Source: Betaproteobacteria bacterium
GTDB taxonomy: Bacteria; Pseudomonadota; Gammaproteobacteria; Burkholderiales; Burkholderiaceae_F
Length of the DNA stretch: 33,406 bases
Reading direction: 5' to 3'
Assembly (NCBI GenBank): GCA_046316025.1
Contig: JBKCXU010000149.1
Coordinates: 1 to 33,406, forward strand
The notes beneath the pieces are model-generated. The model saw nothing but the letters and a program-made list of their open reading frames with translations. It had not been told where the DNA came from and searched no databases. Below, one piece after another: positions 5,140 through 31,935 of the stretch. Each line of letters opens with the position of its first letter. The stretch's first letter is position 1. The position numbers and the translations under genes were made by a program.

Positions 5140-5628
5140 CTAGCGGCCCCAGCAGCGGTCGAACAAGGCGCCGTTCGTCGTATGGCCAGCGCACCCGGTG
5201 CCCGCGACAGCGGCGTCGACCAGGCAGCGCGCACCGGACTGGTCGATTCGGAACGCGCCGCACTCGTCGTTGGCTTGCGGACCGGCCGGCGTTGCGGTGA
5301 GCGTGTAAGTCGCCGCGGTCAAGTTGCCCAGCGCAATGTTGTAGCGCACGGTGCCGGCCTCCGGCGCGCGCGCAAACGCGGCCGGGAGGGTGATCGCCGT
5401 GGCGGCTTGGTTCTGGTCGAAGCGCCGCGAGCGCGACTGGTTGTTTTCGACCCATTGGGCCGCCAGCGAAAGCGCTGTTCTGGCGTCCTTGCGCGCACTG
5501 CGGGCGACGGCCTCGGAGTAGTTGGGGATGGCAATCGCTGCCAAGATAGCCAGGATCGCCACCACCACCATCAATTCGACCAGCGTGATGCCCTCGCGCC
5601 GACGGTGCCAACGAGTTCGATGAGTCAT
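5140..5628 (-). CDS. pilE: Type IV pilin-like protein (PilE-type minor pilin)
   Basis: Prepilin N-terminus ...RRREG|ITLVELMVVVAILAILAAIAIPNY (N-methyl/F-T-L-x-E motif, hydrophobic helix). It is the last gene of the fimU-pilVWXY1E operon. Confidence 0.8.
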   Translation of the reverse strand: MTHRTRWHRRREGITLVELMVVVAILAILAAIAIPNYSEAVARSARKDARTALSLAAQWVENNQSRSRRFDQNQAATAITLPAAFARAPEAGTVRYNIALGNLTAATYTLTATPAGPQANDECGAFRIDQSGARCLVDAAVAGTGCAGHTTNGALFDRCWGR

Positions 5629-17352: not shown

Positions 17353-17645
17353 TTTGTAGTTCTCCAAAGAGCGAGTGAAAGAACGGAAGTGGGCGTGGCC
17401 TCCCGGCCAGCACGCGGCACCGCCGCGTGGCGCACCGAGGAGTACCGCCTGCGCCGCGCAGCACGCCACGCGCTGGCCCACGGGCCAGCGGCGGTGTGCC
17501 GGTTGAGCGGAAGACGGTTCGTCGGCGCGCGCCGGTGGGGCGCAAGCGCGATGGGCGGTGCCGGGGCCGTTGCGCGGCGCGCTCGTCTGCGCCGCTCGCC
17601 AGTCCCGGCCGAGGCCGGCCCGGTTTGAAGCAAACCCTTTACAGG

Positions 17646-17719
17646 GGTATCCCGCGGGAGTCGAACCCGCGACCGACGGTTTATGAGACCGTTGCTCTAC
17701 CCGACTGAGCTAGGGATGG
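17646..17719 (-). tRNA. tRNA(CAT) Met or Ile2-type. It has a classic D-arm (GCTC AGTCGGGTA GAGC), anticodon loop CTCATAA and T-arm GCGGG TTCGACT CCCGC. The top two acceptor pairs are mismatched, and its 5' end overlaps the CCA of the upstream tRNA-like element by 3 nt.
   Basis: Manual fold of the reverse complement. No CCA encoded. Acceptor is 5' CCATCCC / 3' GGGATAC (5 bp plus 2 terminal mismatches). Confidence 0.5.
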
Positions 17720-17795
17720 TGTCGAAACGGGGAATCGAACCCCGAGGTACGCCGCGGCGAGCCGCGACGCGCGTTTGCCATTTCGCCATTTCGAC
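17718..17795 (-). ncRNA. Anticodon-less tRNA-like element (tRNA pseudogene or Y-RNA-like tRNA mimic). It has a perfect 7-bp acceptor (GTCGAAA/TTTCGAC), discriminator A, encoded CCA, a canonical T-arm CGGGG TTCGATT CCCCG and a type-II-like D-arm GCG AAATGGCAAA CGC. The anticodon arm is replaced by an 8-bp stem with tetraloop (CGTCGCGG CTCG CCGCGGCG).
   Basis: Manual fold. No 5+7+5 anticodon arm is possible. The variable region is too short for a class II tRNA. Confidence 0.5.
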
Positions 17796-18055
17796 ACTAT
17801 TCGCCGGCGCCTTGCCGCGGTACGCGTGCGTCCGACGTACGGGACGGGAGCACGCGCCAGGCCGCACGCGATGCGGACCCGCTGACGACAGCTTGCCGGG
17901 CGAATGGGGGAGGCCGGCGCGCACGGCGCGCGCCGGCCGAACAAAGTCCCTGCAGCTCGCGCTCGCGCGCGACCGGACCGCTGCCGCCTGCACTTGCGCG
18001 CGGCGCAGACGACCCGGGCCGCGCCGTCCGGTGGCGTTGCGCAGCCCGTGGGAGG

Positions 18056-18078
18056 AAAAAGTGCCGGTTGCGTCCGGC
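18056..18078 (-). terminator. Putative rho-independent terminator (GCCGG ACGCAA CCGGC AC TTTTT) about 240 nt downstream of the HNH gene
   Basis: 5-bp GC stem plus T5 on the minus strand. Short stem, so moderate confidence. Confidence 0.4.
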
Positions 18079-18319: not shown

Positions 18320-18883
18320 TCAGTGCAGCCGCAGCCGCGAGTGCTTCGGCAGCCGCGCCGCCAGGTACTCGTACTGATCGGCGAGCACCTTGCGGTTGGC
18401 GAGCAAAAACGCCTCGTTGCGGCAGGGCAGGTACGGCGCCCAGATCGGCAGCATGCGCGCCTCTTCCGGCGTGCGCGCGCCCTTGCGGGCGTTGCAGGCG
18501 CGGCAGGCGGCGAGCAGGTTCATGTACGAGTAGGCACCGCCGCGGCTGGCCGGGACGACGTGATCGACCGTCAGCTGCGACTCGGCAAACCGCTGCGCGC
18601 AGTAGGCACAGGTGAAACGGTCGCGCGCGAAGATCAAGCACCGCTCGACCGCCGGCGTGCGGAATTCCTGCGCACACCATGCGCCGCCGGCGAGCGCGAT
18701 CACGGGCGCAACCTCTAGCGTCGAGATGCGGCCCGTGACCGCGTTACGGCCACCGCGCAGCGTGACGACCGGCGCGCCGATCTCCCACAGCACCAGCCCC
18801 TTGGCGCCGTAGATCGCGGCGTCTTGCACGGAAATCCACCGATGCGCCACGCCGGCGGAGTCGAGTTGCAGTACGGCAACCAT
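18320..18883 (-). CDS. HNH endonuclease (188 aa). Start trimmed to MVAVLQLDSAG with strong SD (GAAAGGAGG).
   Basis: HNH motif CAYCAQRF...LTVDHVVPASRGGAYSYMNLLAACRACNARKG. Confidence 0.8.
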   Translation of the reverse strand: MVAVLQLDSAGVAHRWISVQDAAIYGAKGLVLWEIGAPVVTLRGGRNAVTGRISTLEVAPVIALAGGAWCAQEFRTPAVERCLIFARDRFTCAYCAQRFAESQLTVDHVVPASRGGAYSYMNLLAACRACNARKGARTPEEARMLPIWAPYLPCRNEAFLLANRKVLADQYEYLAARLPKHSRLRLH

Positions 18884-19091
18884 GCCGACCTCCTTTCGCT
18901 GGATGCCGGCAACGGGCGCCTGCCGGCGTGGCGGGTTTGGGCGGGGGCGCGGCGGCGGTCTGCGCGACGACAGGGCCAGGCACCAGCGTTGTGCTTCGAG
19001 ACTTCGCGGCGACCTGCACCTGTTAGCGCGCCCCGTGGGTGCTGCGTACCGAGCTCGCTGCACCCGTTGCCCTCAGCCGGCGCTGCGCGCC

Positions 19092-19302: not shown

Positions 19303-20511
19303 TCAGCCCTTGATGCACAGCACCTGTTTGAGCCGGTGCACGACCTCGACCAGATCGGCCTGCGCGGCCATCACGGCGTCGATGTCCTTGTAGGCGCCGG
19401 GGATCTCGTCGAGCACTCCGGCATCCTTGCGGCATTCGACCCCGTCGGTCTGCGCGCGCAGGTCGGCCAGCGAATAGGCACGCTTGGCGGCACCGCGGCT
19501 CATCCGCCGGCCGGCACCGTGCGAGCAGGAGCAGTACGACTCCGCATTGCCCTTGCCGCGCACGATGTAGGAGCGCGCGCCCATGCTGCCGGGGATGATG
19601 CCGAGCTCGCCGGCGCGCGCCGACACCGCACCCTTGCGGGTGATCCACAGCTTCTGGCCGAAGTGTTCTTCGACCGAGCTGTAGTTGTGGTGGCAGTTGA
19701 CCGCGCTGGCGGCAACACCGATCTCGCGCCCGAACTGCGCGCGCAGCGCCTTGAGCACCGCGTGCAGCATTGAGTCGCGGTTCAGCGCCGCGTAGTCCTG
19801 CGCCCAGCGCAAGCCCTCGACGTATTCGTCGAACGGCGCGCTGCCCTCGTCGAGCCAGGCCAGGTCGCGGTCGGGCAGATGGCGCTCCAGCCGCTGTGCC
19901 TCGCGCTGCGCCAGATCGATCGCGGTCTCGCCGATCGTCTTGCCGACGTTGCGCGAACCCGAGTGCAGCATGATCCAGACGCGCTCGGACTCGTCCAGGC
20001 ACAGCTCGATGAAGTGATTGCCGCCGCCCAGGGTGCCGAGCTGCTTCCACACCCGCGCGTGGTCGAACTTGCCGACCCGATCCATGATCCGCAGCCGGCC
20101 GTAGCGCTGGTGCAGCTCGGCGCCGCGCCGCTTGAGCGCGCTGCCAAAGAGCCCGTCGCGGTGCGTGCCGACCGGCCGGTCGTGGGCGGCAAAGCCCACC
20201 GGCACCAGCGACTCGATGGCCGCGCGGATCGCGGCGAGCGAGTCCGGCAGTTCGTCGGCCGTGAGCGCCGTGCGCACCGCGCACATGCCGCAGCCGATGT
20301 CCACGCCCACCGCGGCGGGGATGATCGCGCTGCGGGTCGGGATCACCGAGCCGACGGTGGCGCCCTTGCCCAGATGTACGTCCGGCATGATCGCCACGTG
20401 GCCGGCCACCACCGGCAGCGCCGCCAGGTTGGCGATCTGCGCTACGGCGTCCGGCTCGACCTCCACGCCTTGCGTCCAGGCACGGACGTTCTTCATTGCG
20501 TTGAGGTTCAT
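19303..20511 (-). CDS. rtcB: RNA-splicing ligase RtcB (3'-phosphate/5'-OH RNA ligase)
   Basis: 402 aa. Conserved RtcB motifs (GGGNHFIELCLDE, MLHSGSRNVGK, CSCSHGAGRRMSR). GGAG RBS. Starts 72 nt after tRNA-Ser, the last gene of the array. Confidence 0.92.
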   Translation of the reverse strand: MNLNAMKNVRAWTQGVEVEPDAVAQIANLAALPVVAGHVAIMPDVHLGKGATVGSVIPTRSAIIPAAVGVDIGCGMCAVRTALTADELPDSLAAIRAAIESLVPVGFAAHDRPVGTHRDGLFGSALKRRGAELHQRYGRLRIMDRVGKFDHARVWKQLGTLGGGNHFIELCLDESERVWIMLHSGSRNVGKTIGETAIDLAQREAQRLERHLPDRDLAWLDEGSAPFDEYVEGLRWAQDYAALNRDSMLHAVLKALRAQFGREIGVAASAVNCHHNYSSVEEHFGQKLWITRKGAVSARAGELGIIPGSMGARSYIVRGKGNAESYCSCSHGAGRRMSRGAAKRAYSLADLRAQTDGVECRKDAGVLDEIPGAYKDIDAVMAAQADLVEVVHRLKQVLCIKG

Positions 20512-20582: not shown

Positions 20583-20676
20583 TGGTGGAAGCGGCCGGTC
20601 CCGACCCGGCATGCCGGCGACAATCGCCGACTCTCGCTTAGCAGGCGAGCGGTTTTGCCAATTCACCCACGCTTCC
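20583..20676 (-). tRNA. tRNA-Ser(GCT), class II, 94 nt. T-loop GTCGGGA (G54/G58). CCA encoded.
   Basis: Acceptor GGAAGCG/CGCTTCC. D-arm GGT GAATTGGCAAA ACC. Anticodon arm CTCGC CTGCTAA GCGAG. Long variable hairpin. Confidence 0.7.
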
Positions 20677-20682
20677 GAATGG

Positions 20683-20758
20683 TGGTCAGGGTGGCTGGCT
20701 CCGCCCCAGCCGCCTCCTGCTCCCAAGGCAGGCGCTCTACTCAATGAGCTACACCCTG
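20683..20758 (-). tRNA. tRNA-Pro(TGG). T-loop GGCGGAG (G54/G58). CCA encoded.
   Basis: Acceptor CAGGGTG/CACCCTG. D-arm GCTC ATTGAGTA GAGC. Anticodon arm CCTGC CTTGGGA GCAGG. Confidence 0.65.
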
Positions 20759-20826
20759 ATGCAAGCTCGCCGTCGGAAAGGGGTGTCCCGAGCGCGTTGA
20801 CGGGCGGCACGCAGTGGCCGACTCGA

Positions 20827-20903
20827 TGGGGTGATCGACCGGTTTCGATCCGGTACCCGCGGGGTCACAGTCCGCGATGCAGAGCCACTACACCACGATC
20901 ACC
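20827..20903 (-). tRNA. tRNA-His(GTG) with G-1 and C73-CCA. T-loop ATCGAAA (A54). Unusual D-arm (5-bp TGTAG/CTGCA with 5-nt loop). One C.C mismatch in the anticodon stem.
   Basis: G + GTGATCG...CGATCAC C CCA. Anticodon loop ACTGTGA. Confidence 0.55.
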
Positions 20904-20924
20904 ACAAAACGGTGCGAAAACAAT

Positions 20925-21013
20925 TGGTGCCCTCGGCGCGAGTCGAACGCGCACTGGCCGCACGGGCCTCCTCGTTCTGAGCGAGGTGGGTTTGCCGATT
21001 CCCCTACGAGGGC
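20925..21013 (-). tRNA. tRNA-Leu(CAG), class II, 89 nt. Canonical T-loop TTCGACT. CCA encoded.
   Basis: Acceptor GCCCTCG/CGAGGGC. Anticodon arm CCTCG CTCAGAA CGAGG. Variable GGCC CGTGC GGCC. Confidence 0.8.
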
Positions 21014-21059
21014 TTGAAGTTGAGCGGGGCCGCTTTGCTGGATTGCGACCTCGCGCGGG

Positions 21060-21146
21060 TGGTGCCGGCGGAGGGCCACGATCCCCCACGGCCTTGCGGC
21101 CGCCAGGCTCTCGACCTGGTGCGTCTGCCAATTCCGCCACGCCGGC
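21060..21146 (-). tRNA. tRNA-Leu(GAG), class II, 87 nt. T-loop ATCGTGG (A54/U58). C33 in the anticodon loop TCGAGAG. CCA encoded.
   Basis: Acceptor GCCGGCG/CGCCGGC. D-arm GCG GAATTGGCAGA CGC. Variable GGCC GCAA GGCC. Confidence 0.6.
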
Positions 21147-21152
21147 AATGAA

Positions 21153-21238
21153 TGGACTCGGAGGCCGGACTCGCACCGGCGCGGACTCTCGTCGGCCGGG
21201 TTGCAACCGGCTGCATTCGCCTGCTCTGCCACTCCGAG
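21153..21238 (-). tRNA. tRNA-Cys(GCA)-like, 86 nt, with an unusually long 14-nt variable region. T-loop TGCGAGT (G55). CCA encoded.
   Basis: Acceptor CTCGGAG/CTCCGAG. Anticodon arm GCCGG TTGCAAC CCGGC. Confidence 0.55.
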
Positions 21239-21242
21239 ATGT

Positions 21243-21314
21243 TGGTTGCGGTCGCCGGCGCTGCCCCGGTCCCCGAGCACATGAAGCTCGTGTGCACTGC
21301 TACACCACCCCGCG
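21243..21314 (-). tRNA. tRNA-Met(CAT)-like with initiator-type 5' acceptor CGCGGGG (C1.A72), but 2 further acceptor mismatches and an aberrant T-arm (CCGG GGCAGCG CCGG). CCA encoded. Possibly degenerate.
   Basis: Anticodon arm CGAGC TTCATGT GCTCG is perfect. The rest is irregular. Confidence 0.4.
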
Positions 21315-21321
21315 ATAGAAC

Positions 21322-21397
21322 TGGTCCCTTCGGCAGGTACCGACCCTGCGACACCCCGGCCTTCAACCGGGTGCTCTACCCACTGAGCTACGAAGGG
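21322..21397 (-). tRNA. tRNA-Phe(GAA). T-loop GTCGGTA (G54/G58). Otherwise textbook (D-arm GCTC AGTGGGTA GAGC). CCA encoded.
   Basis: Acceptor CCCTTCG/CGAAGGG. Anticodon arm CCCGG TTGAAGG CCGGG. Confidence 0.75.
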
Positions 21398-21402
21398 GGA
21401 AC

Positions 21403-21477
21403 TGGAGCTTCGCCCCGAACGTGCGCCGGGCTGTCGTCCTTACGAGGGCCGCGCGTCGCTGTCTACGCCGGCGAAGC
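21403..21477 (-). tRNA. tRNA-Thr(CGT)-like. Good acceptor and D-arm. Anticodon stem has 1 mismatch. T-loop CGCACGT is non-canonical. CCA encoded.
   Basis: Acceptor GCTTCGC/GCGAAGC. D-arm GCGT AGACAGCG ACGC. Loop CTCGTAA. Confidence 0.4.
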
Positions 21478-21505
21478 GAATGGGCGCCGCCGCGCGACCA
21501 ACGGG

Positions 21506-21577
21506 CACACCGTGCGGGTATCGATCCCGCCTGCGCAGGTTGAAAGCCTGCTGACCTCACCTGAAGTCGAACGGTGC
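21506..21577 (-). tRNA. tRNA-Glu(TTC). T-loop ATCGATA (A54/U58). No CCA encoded. G1.U72.
   Basis: Anticodon arm GCAGG CTTTCAA CCTGC is perfect. T-stem GCGGG/CCCGC. Confidence 0.55.
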
Positions 21578-21587
21578 GTGTTGCTGT

Positions 21588-21661
21588 CTGCGGCCGCTGG
21601 ACTCGAACCAGCCTGTTCCTTCTTAACAGGGAGGCGTCGTCGCCCGGACGACTCGACCGCA
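21588..21661 (-). tRNA. tRNA-Asn(GTT). Canonical T-loop TTCGAGT. No CCA encoded. One mismatch in the anticodon stem.
   Basis: Acceptor TGCGGTC/GGCCGCA (one G.U). Loop CTGTTAA. Confidence 0.55.
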
Positions 21662-21667
21662 ACATGC

Positions 21668-21743
21668 TGGACCCTCCGCGAGGAATCGAACCTCGATCTC
21701 GACGTTCGTAGCGTCGTGTCCTTGTCCGTTGAACGACGGAGAG
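21668..21743 (-). tRNA. tRNA-Arg(ACG). Canonical T-loop TTCGATT. CCA encoded.
   Basis: Acceptor CTCTCCG/CGGAGGG (one G.U). Anticodon arm CGACG CTACGAA CGTCG is perfect. Confidence 0.75.
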
Positions 21744-21748
21744 AGATT

Positions 21749-21823
21749 TGGCGCCGCTTGCGGGTGCCGACCCCGCGGCCTTCCGCTGGACAGGCGGGTG
21801 CTCTGCCGTTGAGCTAAAGCGGC
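21749..21823 (-). tRNA. tRNA-Asp(GTC). T-loop GTCGGCA (G54/G58). CCA encoded.
   Basis: Acceptor GCCGCTT/AAGCGGC. D-arm GCTC AACGGCA GAGC. Loop CTGTCCA. Confidence 0.65.
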
Positions 21824-21870
21824 GTGGCGCAGAGAGTGCCCTTTGCCAGTTCCGGCATCTCTCCTTGAGC

Positions 21871-21946
21871 TGGTTGGCCGCCTGGGGCTCGAACCCAGAT
21901 CTGCCGGATCAAGAGTCCGGTTCCCTGCCACTCGGGAGCGCGGCCA
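21871..21946 (-). tRNA. tRNA-Lys(CTT). Canonical T-loop TTCGAGC. G8 and G14 instead of U8/A14. CCA encoded.
   Basis: Acceptor TGGCCGC/GCGGCCA is perfect. Anticodon arm CCGGA CTCTTGA TCCGG. Confidence 0.65.
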
Positions 21947-21952
21947 GCGCAT

Positions 21953-22024
21953 TGGAGGACCGACCGAGTAACGCTCTCGGCGTGCGGTGCTTGCAAGGCA
22001 CGGCTGCACCCTTGTGCTCGGCCC
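21953..22024 (-). tRNA. tRNA-Ala(TGC)-like, short (72 nt). 4-bp D-stem with 4-nt loop. T-loop AGCGTTA (A54/U58). CCA encoded.
   Basis: Acceptor GGGCCGA/TCGGTCC. Anticodon GTGC CTTGCAA GCAC. Confidence 0.4.
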
Positions 22025-22030
22025 GTGTTC

Positions 22031-22120
22031 TGGTGCGTCAGGCTGGGCATGATCCAGCAGCGGCCCCGGTGGGCTCCTGCTTTACAGGCAGGCGGGTTCA
22101 GCCAGCTTCCCTACTGACGC
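22031..22120 (-). tRNA. tRNA-Tyr(GTA), class II, 90 nt. T-loop ATCATGC (A54/U58). CCA encoded.
   Basis: Acceptor GCGTCAG/CTGACGC. Anticodon arm CCTGC CTGTAAA GCAGG. Variable GCCC ACCG GGGC. Confidence 0.65.
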
Positions 22121-22161
22121 GTGCCATGCGCCAACGCACGGCCCGGCCATGCGCTGGCGAA

Positions 22162-22237
22162 TGGTGCGGGCGCCCGGGAACGATCCGAGGCCTCGACGTT
22201 GGCAACGTCGCGTGCTGCCGATTGACACCACGCCCGC
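22162..22237 (-). tRNA. tRNA-Gly(GCC), first gene of the array. T-loop ATCGTTC (A54/U58). CCA encoded.
   Basis: Acceptor GCGGGCG/CGCCCGC. Anticodon arm CGACG TTGCCAA CGTCG is perfect. Confidence 0.7.
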
Positions 22238-22688: not shown

Positions 22689-23162
22689 TCAACGCACGCG
22701 CCGCAGCGCTGTTGCGCGGGCGCCACCCCGCGTCGTGGCCGGCGGGCGCGCGGCGGGCGCCGACTTGAGCAGCTCCGCGTGCAGCGCGTCCAGCAGCCGC
22801 TCCTTGGCGAGCTGCTTGTTGATGCGGAACAGCGTGAGGAACAACTGCACCGCGTTGCGTTCTTCGTCGTCGCCGTACGGCACCGCCGGCGGCAGCACCT
22901 TGACCGGCAGCCGCTCGGCGTCGCTCGCGTCGAGGCTGCCCTGCGGCATCCGGCACTTGCTTTCGATCTGGCGCGCCAGCTTCTCGCCAATGTGGCGGTG
23001 CTTGGACTTGAGCTGGCTCCAGTGCGCCGGGTTGACGTCGATCAGCCGCGCGAAGCTCGTCTCCGCGGTCCGCGCCCGCTCGTCGCCCTCCGCGCGCCAG
23101 CGGCGCACGAAGTGATCGCGCAGCAGCAGCGCGTTTTGCAGGCGGATGTCGGCGAGGTCCAT
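22689..23162 (-). CDS. Phage CII-like / Cro-CI-type HTH transcriptional regulator (157 aa)
   Basis: ARLIDVNPAHWSQLKSKHRHIGEKLARQIE resembles the CII-type HTH (lambda CII GVDKSQISRWKRDWIPKF). Weak family assignment. Confidence 0.4.
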   Translation of the reverse strand: MDLADIRLQNALLLRDHFVRRWRAEGDERARTAETSFARLIDVNPAHWSQLKSKHRHIGEKLARQIESKCRMPQGSLDASDAERLPVKVLPPAVPYGDDEERNAVQLFLTLFRINKQLAKERLLDALHAELLKSAPAARPPATTRGGARATALRRVR

Positions 23163-25134: not shown

Positions 25135-26778
25135 CTAGTCTTGCGCCGGCCTTTGCGCGGCCAGATCGGCGGCAATCAGCCGGAACTGCTCCAGCGCCGC
25201 CTCCAGGTCTTCGACGATCTCTTGCGCGATCGCCTCGGGCGGGGGCAGGTTGTCGCTGTCGGCGAGGCTCGCATCCTTGAGCCAGAAGATGTCGAGGCTC
25301 GCCTTGTCGCGGGCGATGAGTTCGTCGTAGCTGTAGGCGCGCCAGCGGCCGTTTGCGCCGCGCTCGCCCCCACCCCCACCCTCCCCCGCAGGCGGGGGAG
25401 GGAGTAACCCCCTCCCCTGCGAAGCGGGGGAGGGCTGGGGTGGGGGCGTGGGTCCTCCATCCCGGTGAGGCTCATGGTCAGCGTTCGGGCGGTGCCCCGC
25501 TTCGTCAAACCAAGTCGCCCTGCGCTCGTGCCGGTTGGCCGGGTTGTACAGCCGCACAAACTCGTCCAGGTCCGCCCGCTTGAGCGGGTTGGTCTTCAGC
25601 GTGTAGTGCTTGTTGGTGCGCAGGTCGTAGATCCACAGTTGACGCGTGCTGGGCGTGTCCGACGCCGGCCGCTTGTCGAAGAACAGCACGTTCGCCTTGA
25701 CCCCTTGCGCGTAGAACAGGCCCGTCGGCAGCCGTAGCAGCGTATGCACGTCGCACTCGTGCAGCAGCTTGCGGCGGATGGTCTCACCGGCGCCGCCTTC
25801 GAAGAGCACGTTGTCCGGCACCACCACCGCTGCGCGGCCGTGGGTCTTGAGCAGCGTCTTGATGTGCTGCACGAAGTTCAGTTGCTTGTTGCTGGTGGTG
25901 GCCCAGAAGTCGTCGCGCTCGACGATGTCTTTCTCGGTCGTCGTGCGGCCGTCTTCGCCGACGATCATCGTGCTGGACTTCTTGCCGAACGGCGGATTGG
26001 CCAAAACAACATCAAATCGTTCGCCAGGGTCGGCCGCCAGCGCATCGGCCACGCGCACCGGCACGTTCTTGTCCGAGCCGATGCCGTGCAGCAGCAGGTT
26101 CATCGCGCACACGCGCGCGGTGGCTTGCACCAGCTCCCAGCCGCGAAATGCGCTCTCCTTGAGGTGGCGCTTCTCTTCGCGGGTGAGGTTGGGGTTGTGC
26201 TGCGCGATGGTGTTGTGCGCGGTGAAGAGAAAGCCGCCGGTGCCGCAGGCCGGGTCGCACACCGTCTCGCCGGGGCGGGGGGCGATGCAATCGACCATCG
26301 CCTGGATCAGCGCGCGCGGCGTGAAGTACTGGCCGGCGCCGGACTTGATGTCCTGCGCGTTGCGCTCCAACAGGCCTTCGTAGGCATCGCCTTTGACGTC
26401 GGTGCCCAGCGCCGACCAGTCTTCGGCGTCGATCAGATCGACGATCACCCGCCGCAGCTTGGCCGGGTCCTGAAACTTGTTCTGCGCCTTGGCGAAGATC
26501 AGCCCCAGCGTGCCGGCGCGCTTGCCCAGCTCTTCCAGCGTGTGGCGGTAGTGGTCGAACAGATCATCGCCGTCCTTGGCCAGCAGCGCAGGCCAGGCGT
26601 AGGCCGCGGGCACGGGGCTCGGCTGGTTGTGCGGCGGGCGGCTGCGCTCGTCGGCCATCTTGAGGAACAGCAGGTAGGTGAGCTGCTCGACATAGTCGCC
26701 ATAGCTCATCCCGTCGTCGCGCAGGACGTTGCAGTAGTTCCAGAGCTTTTGGACGAGGGTGGCAGCGTTCATCGTCAC
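25135..26778 (-). CDS. hsdM: Type I restriction-modification N6-adenine DNA methyltransferase HsdM, with an in-frame ~45-aa insertion derived from the palindromic repeat element
   Basis: 547 aa. HsdM_N plus the NPPFG catalytic motif. The segment GHRPNADHEPHRDGGPTPPPQPSPASQGRGLLPPPPAGEGGGGGERGA sits between the conserved ...TWFDE and NGRWRAYSYDELIARDKASLDIFWLKD. Confidence 0.88.
   Translation of the reverse strand: MTMNAATLVQKLWNYCNVLRDDGMSYGDYVEQLTYLLFLKMADERSRPPHNQPSPVPAAYAWPALLAKDGDDLFDHYRHTLEELGKRAGTLGLIFAKAQNKFQDPAKLRRVIVDLIDAEDWSALGTDVKGDAYEGLLERNAQDIKSGAGQYFTPRALIQAMVDCIAPRPGETVCDPACGTGGFLFTAHNTIAQHNPNLTREEKRHLKESAFRGWELVQATARVCAMNLLLHGIGSDKNVPVRVADALAADPGERFDVVLANPPFGKKSSTMIVGEDGRTTTEKDIVERDDFWATTSNKQLNFVQHIKTLLKTHGRAAVVVPDNVLFEGGAGETIRRKLLHECDVHTLLRLPTGLFYAQGVKANVLFFDKRPASDTPSTRQLWIYDLRTNKHYTLKTNPLKRADLDEFVRLYNPANRHERRATWFDEAGHRPNADHEPHRDGGPTPPPQPSPASQGRGLLPPPPAGEGGGGGERGANGRWRAYSYDELIARDKASLDIFWLKDASLADSDNLPPPEAIAQEIVEDLEAALEQFRLIAADLAAQRPAQD
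25364..25448. repeat. Copy of the CCCCTCCCC...GGGGAGGG palindromic repeat inserted in-frame within hsdM. Right arm 25408-25448 is identical over 40 nt to 82-121.
   Basis: Read directly. Confidence 0.8.
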
Positions 26779-28232
26779 GCCCAGTAGGGGATGTACTCGG
26801 CGAACTTCCTTCCACTGCCCATGTCCTTGCGCCTGATCCGGCCGGCCTCTACCGCGTCACTGATGAGGTTGGTGATCTGGTTACGGGTCTTGTCATGAAG
26901 GTGAAATCGCCGACGTAGCGTCGTATTCGTCAGGGTCTTGCTCGACAGATACTGCAGCACGGCGTGCTGGTAGCACGCCTCGATCCGCTCGGATGTAGAC
27001 ATATCGGCGAACTTGCGCGGCGCGCCGATGGTCACGCGGAAGGCGTTGTCCTGCGGCGCCAGCACGAGGGGCGGCAGTCCGAACAACTCGATCGCCGTCA
27101 CGACTTTCTGGAAGCCGGTGCCGCGTTCCTCGCAGATCCGGAAGCGCCGGAACGACGAGGCCAGTTTCTCGTTGCGCGACTCCGGCGTCGTGCCGATCAG
27201 CCGGTCGGGCTTCTTGCCCGGCAGCAATGCTCCCGGACTGGTGATCTCGATGCGGTCGTCGTAGATCTCGACCATCGGGCCGGCACCGCCGACCGAAAAG
27301 TCCTGGTGGATCAGCGCGTTCGCAATCAGCTCGCGCAATGCAATCTCGGGGTACATCGCCACCTCGGTCCGCAGCGCCTGCTGGATGACCTCGGAATGCG
27401 GCAGCACACGCTTCAGGTGCCCGATCAGGCCTTCGAAGCCAACCGCGTAGCCGCGCTGGCCCGCAAGCTCGTCGACGGTGTTGACCTTGTTCGTGCCGCG
27501 GTAGCGGATCACCCGGATACGCTTCCGGTCCAGCGACGGGAACTCATCCAGCTTCTTCGCCGCAGCGACCGCCCCGAAGTTCGTGATGTAGAAACCGCGT
27601 CCCTCGGCCACCGCGAGGCCCTCGGCGAGAAGCCAGGCTTCCAGGTTGTCGTCGCCTTCTGGCAGCGGGCGTTGCAGCAAGGCTGCGATGGCCTCCAGAT
27701 CCAGCAGACGCACGACCTCCGACAGGTCGATGAGCGGCGATGCGCGCAGTTCTTCCCAGCGCGGCGACGCGCTGTTGAGCATCAAGGCACCGACCTCCTG
27801 CCGCGACGCCTTGCGCGTCGTGCCGCCGGAGCGAATCCAGGCCTCTTCGATACCTTTGCCGCGCCGATGCACCGGCTTCACCGCCTGCTCGGGCACCCGG
27901 ACGAGCAGCACCGAGACCCCCCGATACTCCACCGCCGCATGGTCGATGGCCACAGGGGGATCGACGGCGTCGCGGCCCAGGTTGGCCAGGGTGTTCGCTA
28001 CCCCGGCAATGTCCTGAGCATCGATGCCCAGCGGCATGCCGTCGTCGTTGACGCCGAAGACCAGCGTGCCACCGTTGGGATGGTTGGCAAACGCCATCAG
28101 GTGCTCGGCCAGCCGTTCCTTTCTGTCCGAGAGCCGGGCCTTCCAGTCGATCTCGTTGGCCTCGTGCGGCAGCGGGCTCAGGCTCTCCTCCAGAGCCTGC
28201 ATCGCCGCCTTCACCCAGTGCTTCGTGGCCAT
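26775..28232 (-). CDS. COG2865-type protein (AlbA_2/Schlafen-like N-domain plus HATPase_c_4, C-terminal winged helix). These are commonly embedded in type I R-M loci. ATGA overlap with hsdM.
   Basis: 485 aa. Domain recognition from the translation is moderate. C-terminus ...NLISDAVEAGRIRRKDMGSGRKFAEYIPYWA. Confidence 0.65.
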   Translation of the reverse strand: MATKHWVKAAMQALEESLSPLPHEANEIDWKARLSDRKERLAEHLMAFANHPNGGTLVFGVNDDGMPLGIDAQDIAGVANTLANLGRDAVDPPVAIDHAAVEYRGVSVLLVRVPEQAVKPVHRRGKGIEEAWIRSGGTTRKASRQEVGALMLNSASPRWEELRASPLIDLSEVVRLLDLEAIAALLQRPLPEGDDNLEAWLLAEGLAVAEGRGFYITNFGAVAAAKKLDEFPSLDRKRIRVIRYRGTNKVNTVDELAGQRGYAVGFEGLIGHLKRVLPHSEVIQQALRTEVAMYPEIALRELIANALIHQDFSVGGAGPMVEIYDDRIEITSPGALLPGKKPDRLIGTTPESRNEKLASSFRRFRICEERGTGFQKVVTAIELFGLPPLVLAPQDNAFRVTIGAPRKFADMSTSERIEACYQHAVLQYLSSKTLTNTTLRRRFHLHDKTRNQITNLISDAVEAGRIRRKDMGSGRKFAEYIPYWA

Positions 28233-28394
28233 TTGATAACAAGTCGTTGATTTAAGAAGGAGTTTCAGGCTTTTCCGGATTCAGATGTGATGCGGCCTTC
28301 CGCTCGACATCGCCGCCCCAACCGCCGGCAGACTCTCCGCGTGTGATGCCAAGCCATTGACTTGAAAGGCTCGATTGTCGCCGTCCGGTTTCGG

Positions 28395-28545
28395 ATGTGA
28401 AAGGCCGGTAAAGATCAGCCCCAGCGCGCCGTCGCGCTTGCCCAGCTCTTCGAGCGTGTGGCGGTAGCGGTCGAACAGCGCATCGTCGTCGCGCAGGACG
28501 TTGCAGTAGCTCCAAGGCTGTTGGAACGAGGGTGGAGGTGTTCAC
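28395..28545 (-). pseudogene. Truncated, diverged 5' fragment of a second hsdM (hsdM'). It aligns to hsdM codons ~1-75 but has a 1-nt insertion and a ~135-bp internal deletion at TCG microhomology.
   Basis: Nucleotide alignment to 26480-26775 (…gtcgaacagCGCATCGTCGTCGCGCAGGACGTTGCAGTAG… versus hsdM …gtcgaacagATCATCGccgtcc…cccgTCGTCGCGCAGGACGTTGCAGTAG…). Confidence 0.7.
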
Positions 28546-28795
28546 GGCGCGGGCGAGGCTGGGTGCTTGCAGGGATGGAGCGGAACGAGAGGTTGTTAGC
28601 GCACACTTGCGTGGAACGCATTGCCCATTGAAGCCGCCCACCAGCCCTGGCCGCGCGCAGCCACGGAGCGCGGCCATTGGTAGAAGGCGCCCACCCGCTT
28701 TGTTAGCCGTCGTCTTCCGATAACACCACTAACAAAGCCAAGCTCTTGTTGTGTAAAAGCTTTTACTCGTTCCATTGATTGTTTGGGCGGTCGAT

Positions 28796-29161
28796 TCATT
28801 GTTTTTCTTGCTCGATCAGAACCCAAAGCGGCGCCTGCCGCGTTCCCGCGTTGCGGATCGCCTTGCCCGACAGGGAAGAAATCAGGTTGTGCACTTTGCC
28901 CAACTTCTGCGCCGGCGTCAGCACCTCCGGCAGCTTGTCGAGCAGCAGCCGGTCGATGTCGCCGCGCGAGACCGGGCCGTGCGTGCGCACCAACTCGACG
29001 ATCATGTCCCGGTAGTAGCGGCTGTCGAAGCCGCGGTTGCGGATGTGCTGCGCTTTCTGCCCCGTGGCGGCCGCCACCGGGCCGGCCACCAGCAGATTGG
29101 GGTAGCGCCCCTCCACCAACCCCGCCGCGCGCAGCCGCTTGGCGCCCGCGGCTCGGGGCAC
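28796..29161 (-). pseudogene. C-terminal fragment (121 aa) of a second, paralogous COG2865-family gene. It is a 5'-truncated remnant.
   Basis: ...KLGKVHNLISSLSGKAIRNAGTRQAPLWVL aligns with the C-terminal winged helix of the full copy (…TNLISDAVEAGRIRRKDMGSGRKFAEYIPY). Confidence 0.55.
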
Positions 29162-29188
29162 CCCCCGTCAAGTCGCCCACGGCCAAGC

Positions 29189-29641
29189 CTACGGTACCCG
29201 CATCCCGGTCTGCGGGTTCAACAACTCCAACGCAAGCGTGTCGCGCAGCGGAAGAAACGCTGCCAAGTCCGTGGACATGACGGTCAAGCCCGCCACCCGC
29301 GCAGTCGCTGCAATCCATAGGTCGTTGTGATCGTGCTGTATCGCGAGGCCCTTCGCCTTGGCGTGCGACTTGAGCCGAGCCCACTCCTCGTGAATCTCGC
29401 GTCGCCCAATGGGCAGGACGACGTGTTCGTCGATCACCTCGTCCAGGAGCTTCCGCCGCCTTTCTCCCCAGCTCTGCGAAAAAGCCAGCAACTCTGCGAC
29501 CGAAACCTCGCACAGAGCCGGCCGGAACGGGGAACTCCTCAATCCGAACTGTCGGTCGATGGCTTCCGCTTGCGCGCTGCCTTCGCGCGTCGCGAACAAG
29601 ACCACGTTGGTGTCGAGCAGGTACGGCAGCGGCGCGCTCAT
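29189..29641 (-). CDS. vapC: PIN-domain ribonuclease toxin (VapC-like)
   Basis: 150 aa. YLLDTNVVLFA...ELLAFS...NDLWIAATARVAGLTVMSTD acidic PIN quartet pattern. Confidence 0.8.
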   Translation of the reverse strand: MSAPLPYLLDTNVVLFATREGSAQAEAIDRQFGLRSSPFRPALCEVSVAELLAFSQSWGERRRKLLDEVIDEHVVLPIGRREIHEEWARLKSHAKAKGLAIQHDHNDLWIAATARVAGLTVMSTDLAAFLPLRDTLALELLNPQTGMRVP

Positions 29642-29647
29642 TCGGCG

Positions 29648-30604
29648 TCAACTCATTGCTTCGACAGCCGCCAGGAACTCTTCGTCGGTTTCCTCGGCCG
29701 GAATACGGCCAAGGATCTTCTCGTAGGCCGACCGCTCGCCGATCTTCAGCCGCAGCAAGCGACTCGTATCGGTCGCCACAATCGCAGCGGGAACGCGCCT
29801 GAAGTACGCATCGCCCTTGGCCGCTGCGGCAATTGCCGAAGCATCCACGCGCAGCAGCGAACCAGAGGGCCTGAATACCGCCTTCCCCTCAATCACCACT
29901 TCGCGATTGAAAAGATCCCTGAGCGTCTCGATCGACCCTTCCCCCTCCCACAGCGCGATGACAACCGCGCCGGGTTCGACGGCGATCTTCATCAAACCTT
30001 GACTCGCCCCCAACACATCCAAGCGGCCGACGATCCGCACTCGCTGAACTGGCGGGATCGCGGCGGATAACTCCGAAGCCGCCTGCGTCACCATCCGATC
30101 CAGAAATGCGGGAACGTCGACGCCCTGCTCGACGAGGGCAATACGATCCAAGTGGCGCGGGGCGACGAACAGCTTGCGATACCGGCTGAATCTCTTCAGC
30201 AATCCCGTATCGAAGCGCGAGCTGTCGCCGCGGCGCGCGGCCACGTCGCGCAGCGACGCGGCAAGCAGATCGAACGCGGTTTGGTCTGCCCGCGGGCCGT
30301 CCTCCCAGAGAGGTCGCTGCCGGAACGCGTCGGGCGCCGCGTCGCCGAGCGTCGGCAACTCGAAGTGCAACAGGGTGGTGTTATCGCCGGTCGCGCTATG
30401 GCCGAGGAAGCGCGTATCAGCTGCGGCTTGCAACTGAGCGGGCACTCGCCCGCGAGCCCGGCTGGAATGCAGAAAGCCCATGCGCACGCTGTCGAGCATG
30501 GTGTCGCGCAGTCCGGTCAGGATCGGCCCGATCAACTCGGGTCTGGGCCGCGGCCCGAGGCCCTCGCGCGCTTCGAGGCGAAAGCTACGTTCGACAGTAT
30601 TCAC
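29648..30604 (-). CDS. Hypothetical protein (318 aa, no recognisable domain). Translationally coupled on both sides: GTG start overlaps the hsdS stop (GTGA), and its stop is 6 nt before the vapC ATG. Acidic C-terminus.
   Basis: Long high-GC3 ORF in frame. Start assigned to GTG VNTVERSF... The upstream part of the ORF overlaps hsdS out of frame. Confidence 0.5.
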   Translation of the reverse strand: MNTVERSFRLEAREGLGPRPRPELIGPILTGLRDTMLDSVRMGFLHSSRARGRVPAQLQAAADTRFLGHSATGDNTTLLHFELPTLGDAAPDAFRQRPLWEDGPRADQTAFDLLAASLRDVAARRGDSSRFDTGLLKRFSRYRKLFVAPRHLDRIALVEQGVDVPAFLDRMVTQAASELSAAIPPVQRVRIVGRLDVLGASQGLMKIAVEPGAVVIALWEGEGSIETLRDLFNREVVIEGKAVFRPSGSLLRVDASAIAAAAKGDAYFRRVPAAIVATDTSRLLRLKIGERSAYEKILGRIPAEETDEEFLAAVEAMS

Positions 30605-31935
30605 AGCACGTCTCCCGTCCTGCGTGCGTAGGAGCCGAAGTCTAGCGAGCGCGCTGTACCGGTAAAGGCTTGCGCCAATACCGCCTGCCGCAGCGCCTGC
30701 GCGCGTTGCAGGTTCGCATCGACCTCGGCCTCGACCTCGCGGACGATGGACAGGCGGCGGTCCAATTCGGCGACGATGCGGCGCTGCTCGGCGAGCGGCG
30801 GAAGCGGCAGGACGAGCTTGCGGCACGTCGACACTTGCACGTTGTGTTGCCCGGCCGTCGCCTTGGTCGTTCTCTCGATACGGCGCTGGAGCGGCGGCGC
30901 CATGAGCCAGTACGCGAGCAGGCGATTCAAGATGCGCGGCCCCGTGCGGAAAGTGACGATGGCCTGATTGATGTTCCACTCCGGAAAGGCGTCCGGGACG
31001 ACCGACACCTTCCCAAGCGGCGGGCCGACGATGTTCGTCAGCACATCCCCAGGCAGACACCGCGAACGGGCAAGAGGGCCGGCATGAACCGCGCGGCGGA
31101 TGAACGTGGGCTTCACGCTGAAATCCAGAGCACCATCGAAGCCGAGGTTGTAGACCTTGATGAACGGCACCTCGCCCGAACCGCTCGTCATCTCGTCGGC
31201 CTTCGGTGTGGAGCCGCTGGCAACGACTTCGCAGACTTCGGCCATGGCTGCCCACGACCACCCGGCCGGCAAATCGACGGCAGGCGCGAGGTCGGGGTGA
31301 TCGCCCTCGGGCGGCGGCAGCGTTGACCCAAGAAGCTCCCCGCGGACAGCGGCCGAGAGGATGGCAGCTCTCTGACGCGCAAGGTTGGCCTTGACGCGCT
31401 TGAGGTTGACGACGGCCTCGTCGAGGCGGGAGAACTGCTTTTCGATTTCGGCGACGATGCGGCGCTGCTCGTCGAGTTCAACGAGTGGAATCTCGAAGTC
31501 GAGTAGCGCGTTCGTCTCGATAGACGCAACGGTCGTACCGTGCTTCGAGCATTCTTTGAGAATGCGACGGCTGGCTCCCCGCAGCGCATGCGCAACGTAC
31601 TTCGGCAGGACACCTGGCCGCGGAGTCAGCGCCTTGAGGTCTTGGTTGATCGTGACCGGGGTCTTCGTCACTGCGACGGGGAGCGTGTGCGACAGGATAC
31701 CGCTTCGCGTGACGAGGAGCACCGATCCCTCGGGGACCATCGAAACACGACCTTGCTTCACCGCCACCTCGGACACTTGGTCTTCGGACGAAGTGATCTC
31801 GTCGACCTTCATGTCCTTTGGCGACACCCACGGAACGGTCCCAGCGGTCCAGTAGGCAGCGTTGGCCTTGGATGGGGTGTTACCACCGCTCCATACCCCG
31901 AGGTCACGAAGGGCAACCATCGCCGCGCCGCTCAC
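30601..31935 (-). CDS. hsdS: Type I R-M specificity subunit HsdS (two target-recognition domains). ATGA overlap with the hsdR stop.
   Basis: 444 aa. Conserved central and C-terminal repeats LVELDEQRRIVAEIE / LPLPPLAEQRRIVAELDRRLS. Ends ...LRQAVLAQAFTG... Confidence 0.85.
   Translation of the reverse strand: MSGAAMVALRDLGVWSGGNTPSKANAAYWTAGTVPWVSPKDMKVDEITSSEDQVSEVAVKQGRVSMVPEGSVLLVTRSGILSHTLPVAVTKTPVTINQDLKALTPRPGVLPKYVAHALRGASRRILKECSKHGTTVASIETNALLDFEIPLVELDEQRRIVAEIEKQFSRLDEAVVNLKRVKANLARQRAAILSAAVRGELLGSTLPPPEGDHPDLAPAVDLPAGWSWAAMAEVCEVVASGSTPKADEMTSGSGEVPFIKVYNLGFDGALDFSVKPTFIRRAVHAGPLARSRCLPGDVLTNIVGPPLGKVSVVPDAFPEWNINQAIVTFRTGPRILNRLLAYWLMAPPLQRRIERTTKATAGQHNVQVSTCRKLVLPLPPLAEQRRIVAELDRRLSIVREVEAEVDANLQRAQALRQAVLAQAFTGTARSLDFGSYARRTGDVL

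Follow-up and report, generated by a model that had tools for sequence, protein, structure and literature searches.

The stretch analysed here, referred to as the window, comprises 33,406 nucleotides (nt) of a betaproteobacterial genome (contig JBKCXU010000149.1 of assembly GCA_046316025.1), and the element in question is a pair of tandem modules shaped like transfer RNA (tRNA), named A and B, that lies upstream of a gene encoding a Band-7 protein. The G+C content of the window is 67.6%, and the genes selected in it by codon-position GC are almost all on the minus strand. Gene content was assigned by Pfam and PHROG scans of 20 open reading frames (ORFs) chosen by codon-position GC, and tRNAs by ARAGORN. 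Along the minus strand, restriction-modification and Schlafen genes are followed by a helix-turn-helix (HTH) regulator, a tRNA array, RtcB, HNH, the A-B pair, Band-7, RlaP and finally type IV pilus and ubiquinone genes. The pair and the genes closest to it are as follows.

17717-17795, minus strand: module A, a tRNA-like RNA of 79 nt without an anticodon loop (sequence, Rfam tRNA model, ARAGORN, pairing in homologues)
17750-17769, minus strand: hairpin in place of the anticodon arm of module A, CGUCGCGG-CUCG-CCGCGGCG (sequence, RNAfold)
17646-17719, minus strand: module B, Band-7-associated tRNA-like module (Rfam tRNA model, 54.6 bits)
16210-17352, minus strand: Band-7/SPFH gene of the stomatin/slipin type, 380 amino acids (Pfam Band_7; start codon checked)
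15255-16142, minus strand: RlaP nucleotidyltransferase of the RNA-ligase-associated Pol-beta family (Pfam PF10127, E 1.7e-88; PHROG nucleotidyltransferase)
18320-19063, minus strand: HNH endonuclease gene (Pfam HNH_5/HNH)
19303-20511, minus strand: RtcB RNA ligase (Pfam PF01139, E 3.6e-126)
20583-22237, minus strand: tRNA array of 14 genes, upstream of RtcB (ARAGORN, Rfam)

On the minus strand, module A reads GTCGAAA-TG-GCG-AAATGGCAAA-CGC-G-CGTCGCGG-CTCG-CCGCGGCG-TACCT-CGGGG-TTCGATT-CCCCG-TTTCGAC-A-CCA as DNA and GUCGAAA-UG-GCG-AAAUGGCAAA-CGC-G-CGUCGCGG-CUCG-CCGCGGCG-UACCU-CGGGG-UUCGAUU-CCCCG-UUUCGAC-A-CCA as RNA. A first-pass annotation of the window had described a flawless acceptor stem, a discriminator A, an encoded CCA and a canonical T-arm, all of which are borne out by the sequence: the seven acceptor pairs are all Watson-Crick, and the stem is followed by A73 and CCA. 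It had also recognised a D-arm of the Leu/Ser type, in agreement with a class-II-style arrangement of a 3-base-pair (bp) stem and a 10-nt loop that resembles the D-arm of tRNA-Leu(gag) in the array, and the absence of an anticodon arm, in place of which both the sequence and RNAfold give an 8-bp stem (including one G-U pair) capped by a CUCG tetraloop. The end of the module had been placed at 17718, for a length of 78 nt, which is off by one base, while the reported variable region of 8 nt depends on how the module is parsed, 4-5 nt being counted between the hairpin and the T-arm. RNAfold recovers the acceptor stem and the hairpin at the anticodon position; its z-scores are weak (-1.7 to -2.0) when computed on the sequence of the window by itself, and it is the comparative evidence that carries the case. 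With the tRNA model of Rfam, module A reaches 42.9 bits (E 1e-7; the gathering score is 29), which is far above chance, with 10 nt replacing the 7-nt anticodon loop, and ARAGORN calls it 'tRNA-Ala ggc' only via a forced non-canonical loop. This Rfam score was obtained in a search restricted to 700 bases; a whole-window search at the gathering threshold missed module A together with five array tRNAs found by ARAGORN (20925-21238 and 21503-21662), and speed filters matter in sequence this rich in G+C.

Module B begins where module A ends. As had been reported, the CCA of module A provides bases 1-3 of module B (17717-17719), and the two outer acceptor pairs of the latter (1-72 and 2-71) are mismatched in the Rfam tRNA alignment, which leaves five pairs out of seven; no CCA follows. 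A covariance model reads the module equally well as starting directly after the CCA of module A, with an acceptor stem of 4 bp. The name 'tRNA(CAT)' given to it described the loop correctly, CUCAUAA being a canonical 7-nt anticodon loop, but an ordinary tRNA it is not: its acceptor stem is short, it has no CCA, and the corresponding loops of its relatives carry 25 different triplets. A model built for module B (R1) scores it at 87.8 bits, as against at most 65 bits for the array tRNAs. The picture originally proposed was that of a genuine tRNA-Met(CAT) gene following an odd tRNA-like leader or decoy. The score of 54.6 bits, the canonical CUCAUAA loop and the lack of any Met tRNA among the 14 genes that ARAGORN finds in the array of the window speak for such a gene, whereas the two mismatched outer pairs and the missing CCA speak against it, the five array tRNAs with sequences examined all encoding CCA. 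It is the relatives of the pair that make this picture very unlikely.

The comparison covers 169 loci with Band-7 relatives (46-97% identity), 80 of them from species-representative genomes, nine from close metagenomic relatives and 80 from Joint Genome Institute (JGI) metagenomes. In most of these loci ARAGORN reports one or two 'tRNAs' located 250-450 nt upstream of Band-7, with anticodons that are scattered and often impossible, including '???' (2- or 4-nt anticodons) and 'Stop tta' besides Ser, Leu, Thr, Ile and Met. A B-type tRNA-like element is present no more than 800 nt upstream of Band-7 in 130 of the 147 loci with at least 450 nt of upstream sequence. The A-B tandem, in which a second T-arm module directly precedes B as in the window, accounts for 74 loci; in another 25, mostly gammaproteobacterial, a small T-arm element is found downstream of the tRNA-like element instead, and 31 have one module only under the strict pattern used. 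In the gammaproteobacterial layout (loci L047, L054, L056, L065, L073, L074, L078, L079 and L150-L155), the tRNA-like module has an acceptor stem of 6-7 bp and often an ACCA end, and the T-arm element that comes next is of ~60 nt; single-module loci often have a 6-bp acceptor stem and ACCAG. In enterobacterial Band-7 loci, no YrlA or tRNA match was found beside Band-7 at Rfam gathering scores. Cultured carriers of the pair include Pseudomonas citronellolis, P. peli and Burkholderia contaminans.

Gene content in 77 well-flanked loci (RtcB in 44, RlaP in 27, HNH in 17) and the linkage to Band-7 indicate that the stable partner of the pair is Band-7 and not HNH. The first-pass annotation had located the pair downstream of the HNH gene; the neighbour that matters is the Band-7/RlaP operon, which lies downstream of the pair. 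The position of RtcB varies: in the window it is upstream, with HNH in between, and in most related loci it is downstream.

Conservation of module A was assessed in 70 unique sequences. The acceptor stem has 5-7 bp in all of them and 7 bp in 35, and the T-arm is fully paired in nearly all. Two size classes are found in equal numbers, 35 modules being cloverleaf-sized, with a D-arm and a hairpin, and 35 being 'minis' of 49-61 nt without a D-arm. Pairing was tested for covariation against shuffles and against slid registers. Over 30 cloverleaf-sized modules, 90.5% of the cells are paired and 17 of the 21 pairs have changes on both sides, with the acceptor stem 95.7% paired (all seven pairs covary) and the T stem 99.3% paired. 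The covariation score is 0.640, as against 0.177 for shuffles (none of 500 reaches the observed value) and at most 0.155 for slid registers. Lack of conservation of the acceptor/T-arm pairing in homologues had been named beforehand as one of the findings that would refute a tRNA mimic at this place; in these 30 homologues the pairing is kept and covaries. The hairpin at the anticodon position differs in sequence and is kept nonetheless, with a tetraloop in 17 of the 30 and a 7-nt loop in six. In L081, the nearest relative with a different sequence (Band-7 82% identical), both strands have changed in the acceptor stem (CUCGAUC/GAUCGAG) and in the T stem with full compensation, and the tetraloop is GAAU; elsewhere it is GCAA (L089) or AUGA (L050). 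The 3' end is less constant, 27 of the 70 ending in NCCA and six more being off by one base. A model of module A (R2) failed to separate A modules from real tRNAs, and no census was made with it.

These results bear on the possibility that the two modules are decayed tRNA pseudogenes at the edge of a mobile tRNA array. There is indeed an array 2.8 kb upstream, one member of which, tRNA-Leu, resembles module A in its D-arm. However, the pair lies beside Band-7 in many genomes without a nearby array, for example in Pseudomonas and Burkholderia loci, compensatory changes are found in every stem, and the hairpin at the anticodon position is maintained with different sequences, which makes decay almost certainly the wrong explanation. 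The suspicion that module A is simply a decayed tRNA was thus not upheld. Conserved as it is without an anticodon, it is a genuine tRNA mimic and no decayed pseudogene.

Module B, which across relatives is the better conserved of the two, is constrained in a different manner. Over 37 diverse homologues, pairing reaches 99-100% in the D, anticodon and T stems, with covariation in each of the five anticodon-stem pairs, while in the acceptor stem the inner four pairs alone hold, the outer two being unpaired in 22 and 28 of the 37. Overall, 89.9% of the cells are paired, 15 of 21 pairs have changes on both sides, and the covariation score is 0.469 (0.156 for shuffles, at most 0.117 for slid registers). 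In A-B loci module B has a mean of 4.9 acceptor pairs, and only two of 68 end in NCCA. The truncated acceptor stem is therefore a family trait, which counts against a genuine tRNA-Met, and with 4-5 bp and no CCA the supposed 'tRNA-Met' is a mimic as well. Its loop varies freely. Among 121 unique B modules, 92 have a loop of 7 nt, 29 deviate with 4-6 or 8 nt, and only 64 follow the canonical Y-U-NNN-R-N pattern, with GAT (16), CAT (8), TGT (5) and CGT (4) leading the 25 triplets. Tetraloops (UUCG, GAAA, GCAA, GCGA) are frequent in Pseudomonas and Burkholderia. That orthologues of the putative tRNA-Met have GAT, CGT, AAG or a UUCG or GAAA tetraloop, and L081 the non-canonical CACCGAA, suggests that the 'CAT' of the window is one state of an unconstrained loop and not evidence for tRNA-Met. 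Loops this unconstrained argue against decoding, and it is likely that neither module decodes codons.

A longer leader, conserved and structured, surrounds the pair; its elements in the window are the following.

17817-17886, minus strand: U domain, with a CAGCGGG motif, P1 and the long P2 (alignments)
17860-17879, minus strand: P1 hairpin
17817-17860, minus strand: P2, a long hairpin closed by CYGG-UGC...GCA-UG-CCG
17635-17647, minus strand: P3, a small hairpin directly after module B, CCCCUGUAAAGGG (by-eye alignment of related loci)

Of 67 unique A-B loci, 57 carry the motifs of the U domain, which hardly any locus of another type has; the family motif is CA(G/A)CGG, the closing pairs of P2 can be written in degenerate form as CYGG-YGC...GCR-UR-CCG, and compensatory changes are numerous. 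Further examples are L017:5504-5598, L045 at about 5490-5600 and L094:2467-2556. P2 is 93% paired, with seven of ten pairs covarying, and scores 0.411, as against 0.185 for shuffles (0 of 500) and at most 0.174 for slid registers. On the other side of the pair, related loci aligned by eye have a hairpin with different stem sequences at the position of P3, the 34 nt after module B have a mean fold energy of -7.2 kcal/mol (-4.5 kcal/mol in shuffles), and a GCAGUACCC-GCCGG motif is found 3' of P3 in most clades. The ~300 nt between module B and the start of Band-7 (17352-17647, with equivalents in L001-L135) are conserved and contain further blocks. No Rfam family matches the leader in the window or in five other loci. 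A candidate closing helix, P0, would be formed by strands before P1 and after the GCAGUACCC motif, which are complementary and covary in L017 (GCCAACGGG/CCCGUUGGC), L029 (GCCGACGGG/CCCGUCGGC), L018 and L031. Over 42 loci, duplex energies between the bases that precede P1 and a conserved CCC-G... segment 3' of P3 are no better than those of shuffles (median z about 0), so that a helix enclosing U, A, B and P3 stays a lead.

Such conserved structure on both sides of the pair raises the question of whether the modules, the U domain and the downstream hairpins together form a cis-acting 5' untranslated region, the folding of which, or its processing by RNase P or RNase Z, would act on the Band-7-RlaP mRNA by controlling its stability, termination or translation. 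The modules lie on the Band-7 strand and always 250-450 nt upstream of its start, which in the window is 294 nt downstream of the pair. In Burkholderia-type loci, sigma-54-like promoters (TGGCACG-N4-TCGCU) precede the whole block, which fits rtc operons under the control of RtcR, among them PA4582-rtcB-PA4584-rtcA of P. aeruginosa (PMC8619066). In 24 of 124 loci, as against three of 124 shuffles, a terminator-like hairpin followed by a U-run immediately precedes the ribosome-binding site. However, this element is missing from about 80% of the loci, so it is enriched and yet no feature of the family; in the window, the GGCC-GGGA-GGCC hairpin that precedes the ribosome-binding site of Band-7 (17396-17409) has no clear U-run. 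Moreover, there is no obvious pairing of the leader with the ribosome-binding site, and released RNAs are the more typical setting for a tRNA-like fold that encodes CCA. A purely regulatory leader is on balance improbable, although it would be compatible with the explanation preferred below and does not exclude it.

The remaining features of the window are the following.

18053-18078, minus strand: terminator-like hairpin and U-run 3' of the HNH gene (terminator scan)
22689-23162, minus strand: HTH regulator preceding the tRNA array (Pfam/PHROG scans)
25135-26778, minus strand: HsdM (type I restriction-modification)
26775-28232, minus strand: Schlafen/AlbA_2 plus HATPase_c_4 protein
31932-33401, minus strand: C-terminal part of HsdR

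Type I restriction-modification and Schlafen genes (25135-33401) adjoin the RNA-repair island of Band-7, RlaP and RtcB, and the arrangement suggests a defence or conflict island inserted next to type IV pilus genes. That RtcB occurs here without Ro had been pointed out and agrees with the gene content: RtcB is in the window, and there is no TROVE (Ro/Rsr) Pfam match among the 20 scanned ORFs, a few ORFs at 28.2-31.9 kb being outside the scan. A phage origin was considered and rejected, despite the tRNA array and the PHROG matches, because relatives of the Band-7 protein are encoded on no more than a single viral contig in IMG/VR; a search of phage DNA gave short matches only, of ~78 bases, which where annotated are mostly tRNA-Arg genes. 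The region is an island of a bacterial chromosome. As for the array, its 'Cys (gca)' tRNA of 86 nt (21153-21238, minus strand) combines a class-II-like D-arm and a long variable arm with a T-loop, UGCGAGU, that is unusual. This is atypical for tRNA-Cys; it may be a tRNA derived from Ser or Leu, or one of the 'allo' type, that carries a Cys anticodon. tRNA arrays recur beside the Band-7/RtcB module in many relatives (L002, L005, L007, L009, L045, L047 and L078).

The Band-7 protein has a counterpart with 100% identity in a Betaproteobacteria metagenome-assembled genome, annotated there as 'slipin family protein'. Residues 184-356 of the Band-7 protein match stomatin entries in the PDB, each of which has at least 16 chains, and residues 1-180 have neither a Pfam family nor a PDB sequence match. 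An AlphaFold model has a mean predicted local distance difference test (pLDDT) score of 55.9, which makes it too poor to be relied on, with the first ~50 residues predicted with moderate confidence to form a small beta-rich unit. The N-terminal ~180 residues are a candidate RNA-binding part.

For RlaP, in turn, the prediction is that it puts back nucleotides that RNA ends have lost (PMC7824862), which is in line with an idea already present in the first-pass annotation, that of a decoy. The pair would then be a sacrificial decoy or sensor for toxins that attack the acceptor stem, CCA or T-arm, or a dedicated substrate of RlaP, with damage to the CCA of module A serving as a signal or sink. The acceptor/T-arm minihelix, often with NCCA, is the best-kept feature across architectures, and the single-element types with a 6-bp acceptor stem and ACCA fit too. 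We nevertheless hold this reading to be unlikely, since CCA is absent from about half of the A modules, RlaP is present in only 27 of the 77 well-flanked loci, and the Pfam-scanned ORFs include no identifiable toxin gene in the island.

Several known systems are instructive. The closest is the b7a-tRNA, which, as summarised in a later publication (10.1101/312249), Burroughs & Aravind 2016 predicted, without validation, as a non-coding RNA strongly resembling tRNA and located beside Band-7 in RtcB neighbourhoods. The pair of the window has the same properties, being tRNA-like, adjoining Band-7 and lying in an RtcB neighbourhood, with RlaP in addition. Judged against this second-hand summary, it fits the predicted b7a-tRNA and is thus not new in kind. 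No Rfam model exists for b7a-tRNA. It is very probable that the pair is a conserved functional tRNA-like RNA of that class.

A second parallel, apt as an analogy when it was first drawn, is YrlA (RF02553), another tRNA mimic of RtcB repair operons that keeps the elbow formed by the T- and D-arms and has no usable anticodon loop. YrlA is no homologue, its model scoring 24.5 bits on the window against a gathering score of 69 bits; the match consists of the T-arm of A and the D-arm of B, and the 15 nt between them form no hairpin. YrlA partners Ro/Rsr in rsr-yrlBA-rtcBA operons, where it has been proposed to be a cofactor or competitive inhibitor and not a decoder, and it is built from a stem that binds Ro and a single tRNA-like domain, circularly permuted, in which the acceptor loop is closed. 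The pair in the window, by contrast, consists of two cloverleaf-like modules in the ordinary order, with an open acceptor stem and CCA. The domain of YrlA that resembles tRNA is not cut by an anticodon nuclease, and a role as a competitive inhibitor has been proposed (PMC7790460). YrlA is believed to descend from a dimeric tRNA transcript, from which it would have taken the first tRNA's T-arm and the second one's D-arm, and this is the order found at the A-B junction, which makes the A-B dimer an interesting comparator.

The mini A modules, with their acceptor stem, T-arm and reduced body, recall a third group, the mascRNA/MEN-beta RNAs (RF01684), which do not decode either. mascRNAs are eukaryotic RNAs that RNase P and RNase Z cut out of a longer transcript, after which CCA is added. 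They are unrelated in origin, and the pair differs from them in its encoded CCA and its tandem arrangement. Matches to the mascRNA-menRNA model are below the gathering score of 42.5 bits, both in the window (20.8 bits) and for the mini A of L045:5615-5664 (31.4 bits), which consists of an acceptor stem, a small GCAA hairpin, a T-arm and ACCA.

In Anabaena, finally, the TrcR regulon unites a slipin gene with rtcB, an HNH gene and a tRNA array, all co-induced under translational stress (PMC10272220, PMC8421152), and such L-arrays contain tRNA genes with undetected products that have been classed as pseudogenes (PMC8421152, PMC10272220). The window holds the same set, namely an HTH regulator, a tRNA array, RtcB, HNH and a slipin gene. 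The L-array papers describe no tRNA-like pair before the slipin gene, and many loci that have the A-B pair lack an array. By analogy, the co-regulation seen in Anabaena supports a shared role that might be exerted under translational or RNA-damage stress.

Taken together, the observed folds, which are conserved and covary, the link of the pair to Band-7, its free loops and the conserved structure around it are best explained by tandem non-decoding tRNA-shaped modules within a leader or non-coding RNA of Band-7 in a Band-7-RlaP-RtcB island, a reading to which we assign a probability of roughly 0.6. The two modules are complementary, in that A keeps the 'top half' of a tRNA (7-bp acceptor stem, T-arm and NCCA) and B keeps the elbow and body (D-arm, anticodon stem and T-arm). 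Since a tetraloop cannot be cut in the manner of an anticodon loop, the modules are arguably not substrates of anticodon nucleases. The likeliest scenario is that transcription of the pair accompanies or slightly precedes that of the Band-7 mRNA, that tRNA-processing enzymes may trim the pair, and that the resulting tRNA mimic, resistant to anticodon nucleases, would act as an RNA cofactor or platform of Band-7, RlaP and RtcB or compete for tRNA-binding nucleases, as YrlA may do with Ro. This mechanism, a nuclease-resistant tRNA-shaped cofactor, platform or competitive ligand, is tentative, its chances being somewhat short of even. A more ambitious version is doubtful. The pair would be the middle of a larger undescribed multi-domain RNA, which would serve a stomatin-cage ribonucleoprotein of RNA repair as its RNA subunit, and at the same time a living example of the 'dimeric tRNA transcript' type from which YrlA may descend, with A and B dividing the labour. 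Such an RNA would comprise U (P1 and P2), A, B and P3, at least about 250 nt in the window, to which its relatives would add the GCAGUACCC motif and possibly P0.

Several points weigh against tandem non-decoding modules acting with Band-7. What can be said about transcription, processing, protein partners and function of the pair is deduced from comparison of sequences, and its assignment to b7a-tRNA goes through the second-hand summary (10.1101/312249). The A modules end in CCA in only about half of the cases and their bodies are very heterogeneous, half of them being minis without a D-arm, which is hard to square with one precise protein-binding surface. Neither the Pfam scan nor the PDB sequence matches reveal a recognisable RNA-binding domain in the Band-7 protein. 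Module B of the window has a fully canonical CUCAUAA loop, and in one sub-clade (L002, L098-L102, L106 and L135) module A resembles a normal tRNA(CAT) with ACCA, which makes it probable that the family arose from real tRNAs; some members could keep a tRNA character and be charged or decode.

Operons for RtcB-dependent repair are widespread and include non-enzymatic partners, Ro with Y RNA or Band-7 with a tRNA-like RNA. The pair described here gives the Band-7-associated RNA a concrete anatomy, a two-module tandem with complementary features, free loops and additional conserved domains. There is also a practical side to this, because programs that search for tRNAs list these modules under anticodons that are close to arbitrary, 'Stop' and undetermined ones among them, and such misannotation can mislead tRNA inventories and claims of suppressor tRNAs. 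With its anatomy worked out, a link to the dimer from which YrlA is thought to originate and a larger unannotated leader around it, the pair is a good experimental target, and one that is accessible, being present in cultured Pseudomonas and Burkholderia.

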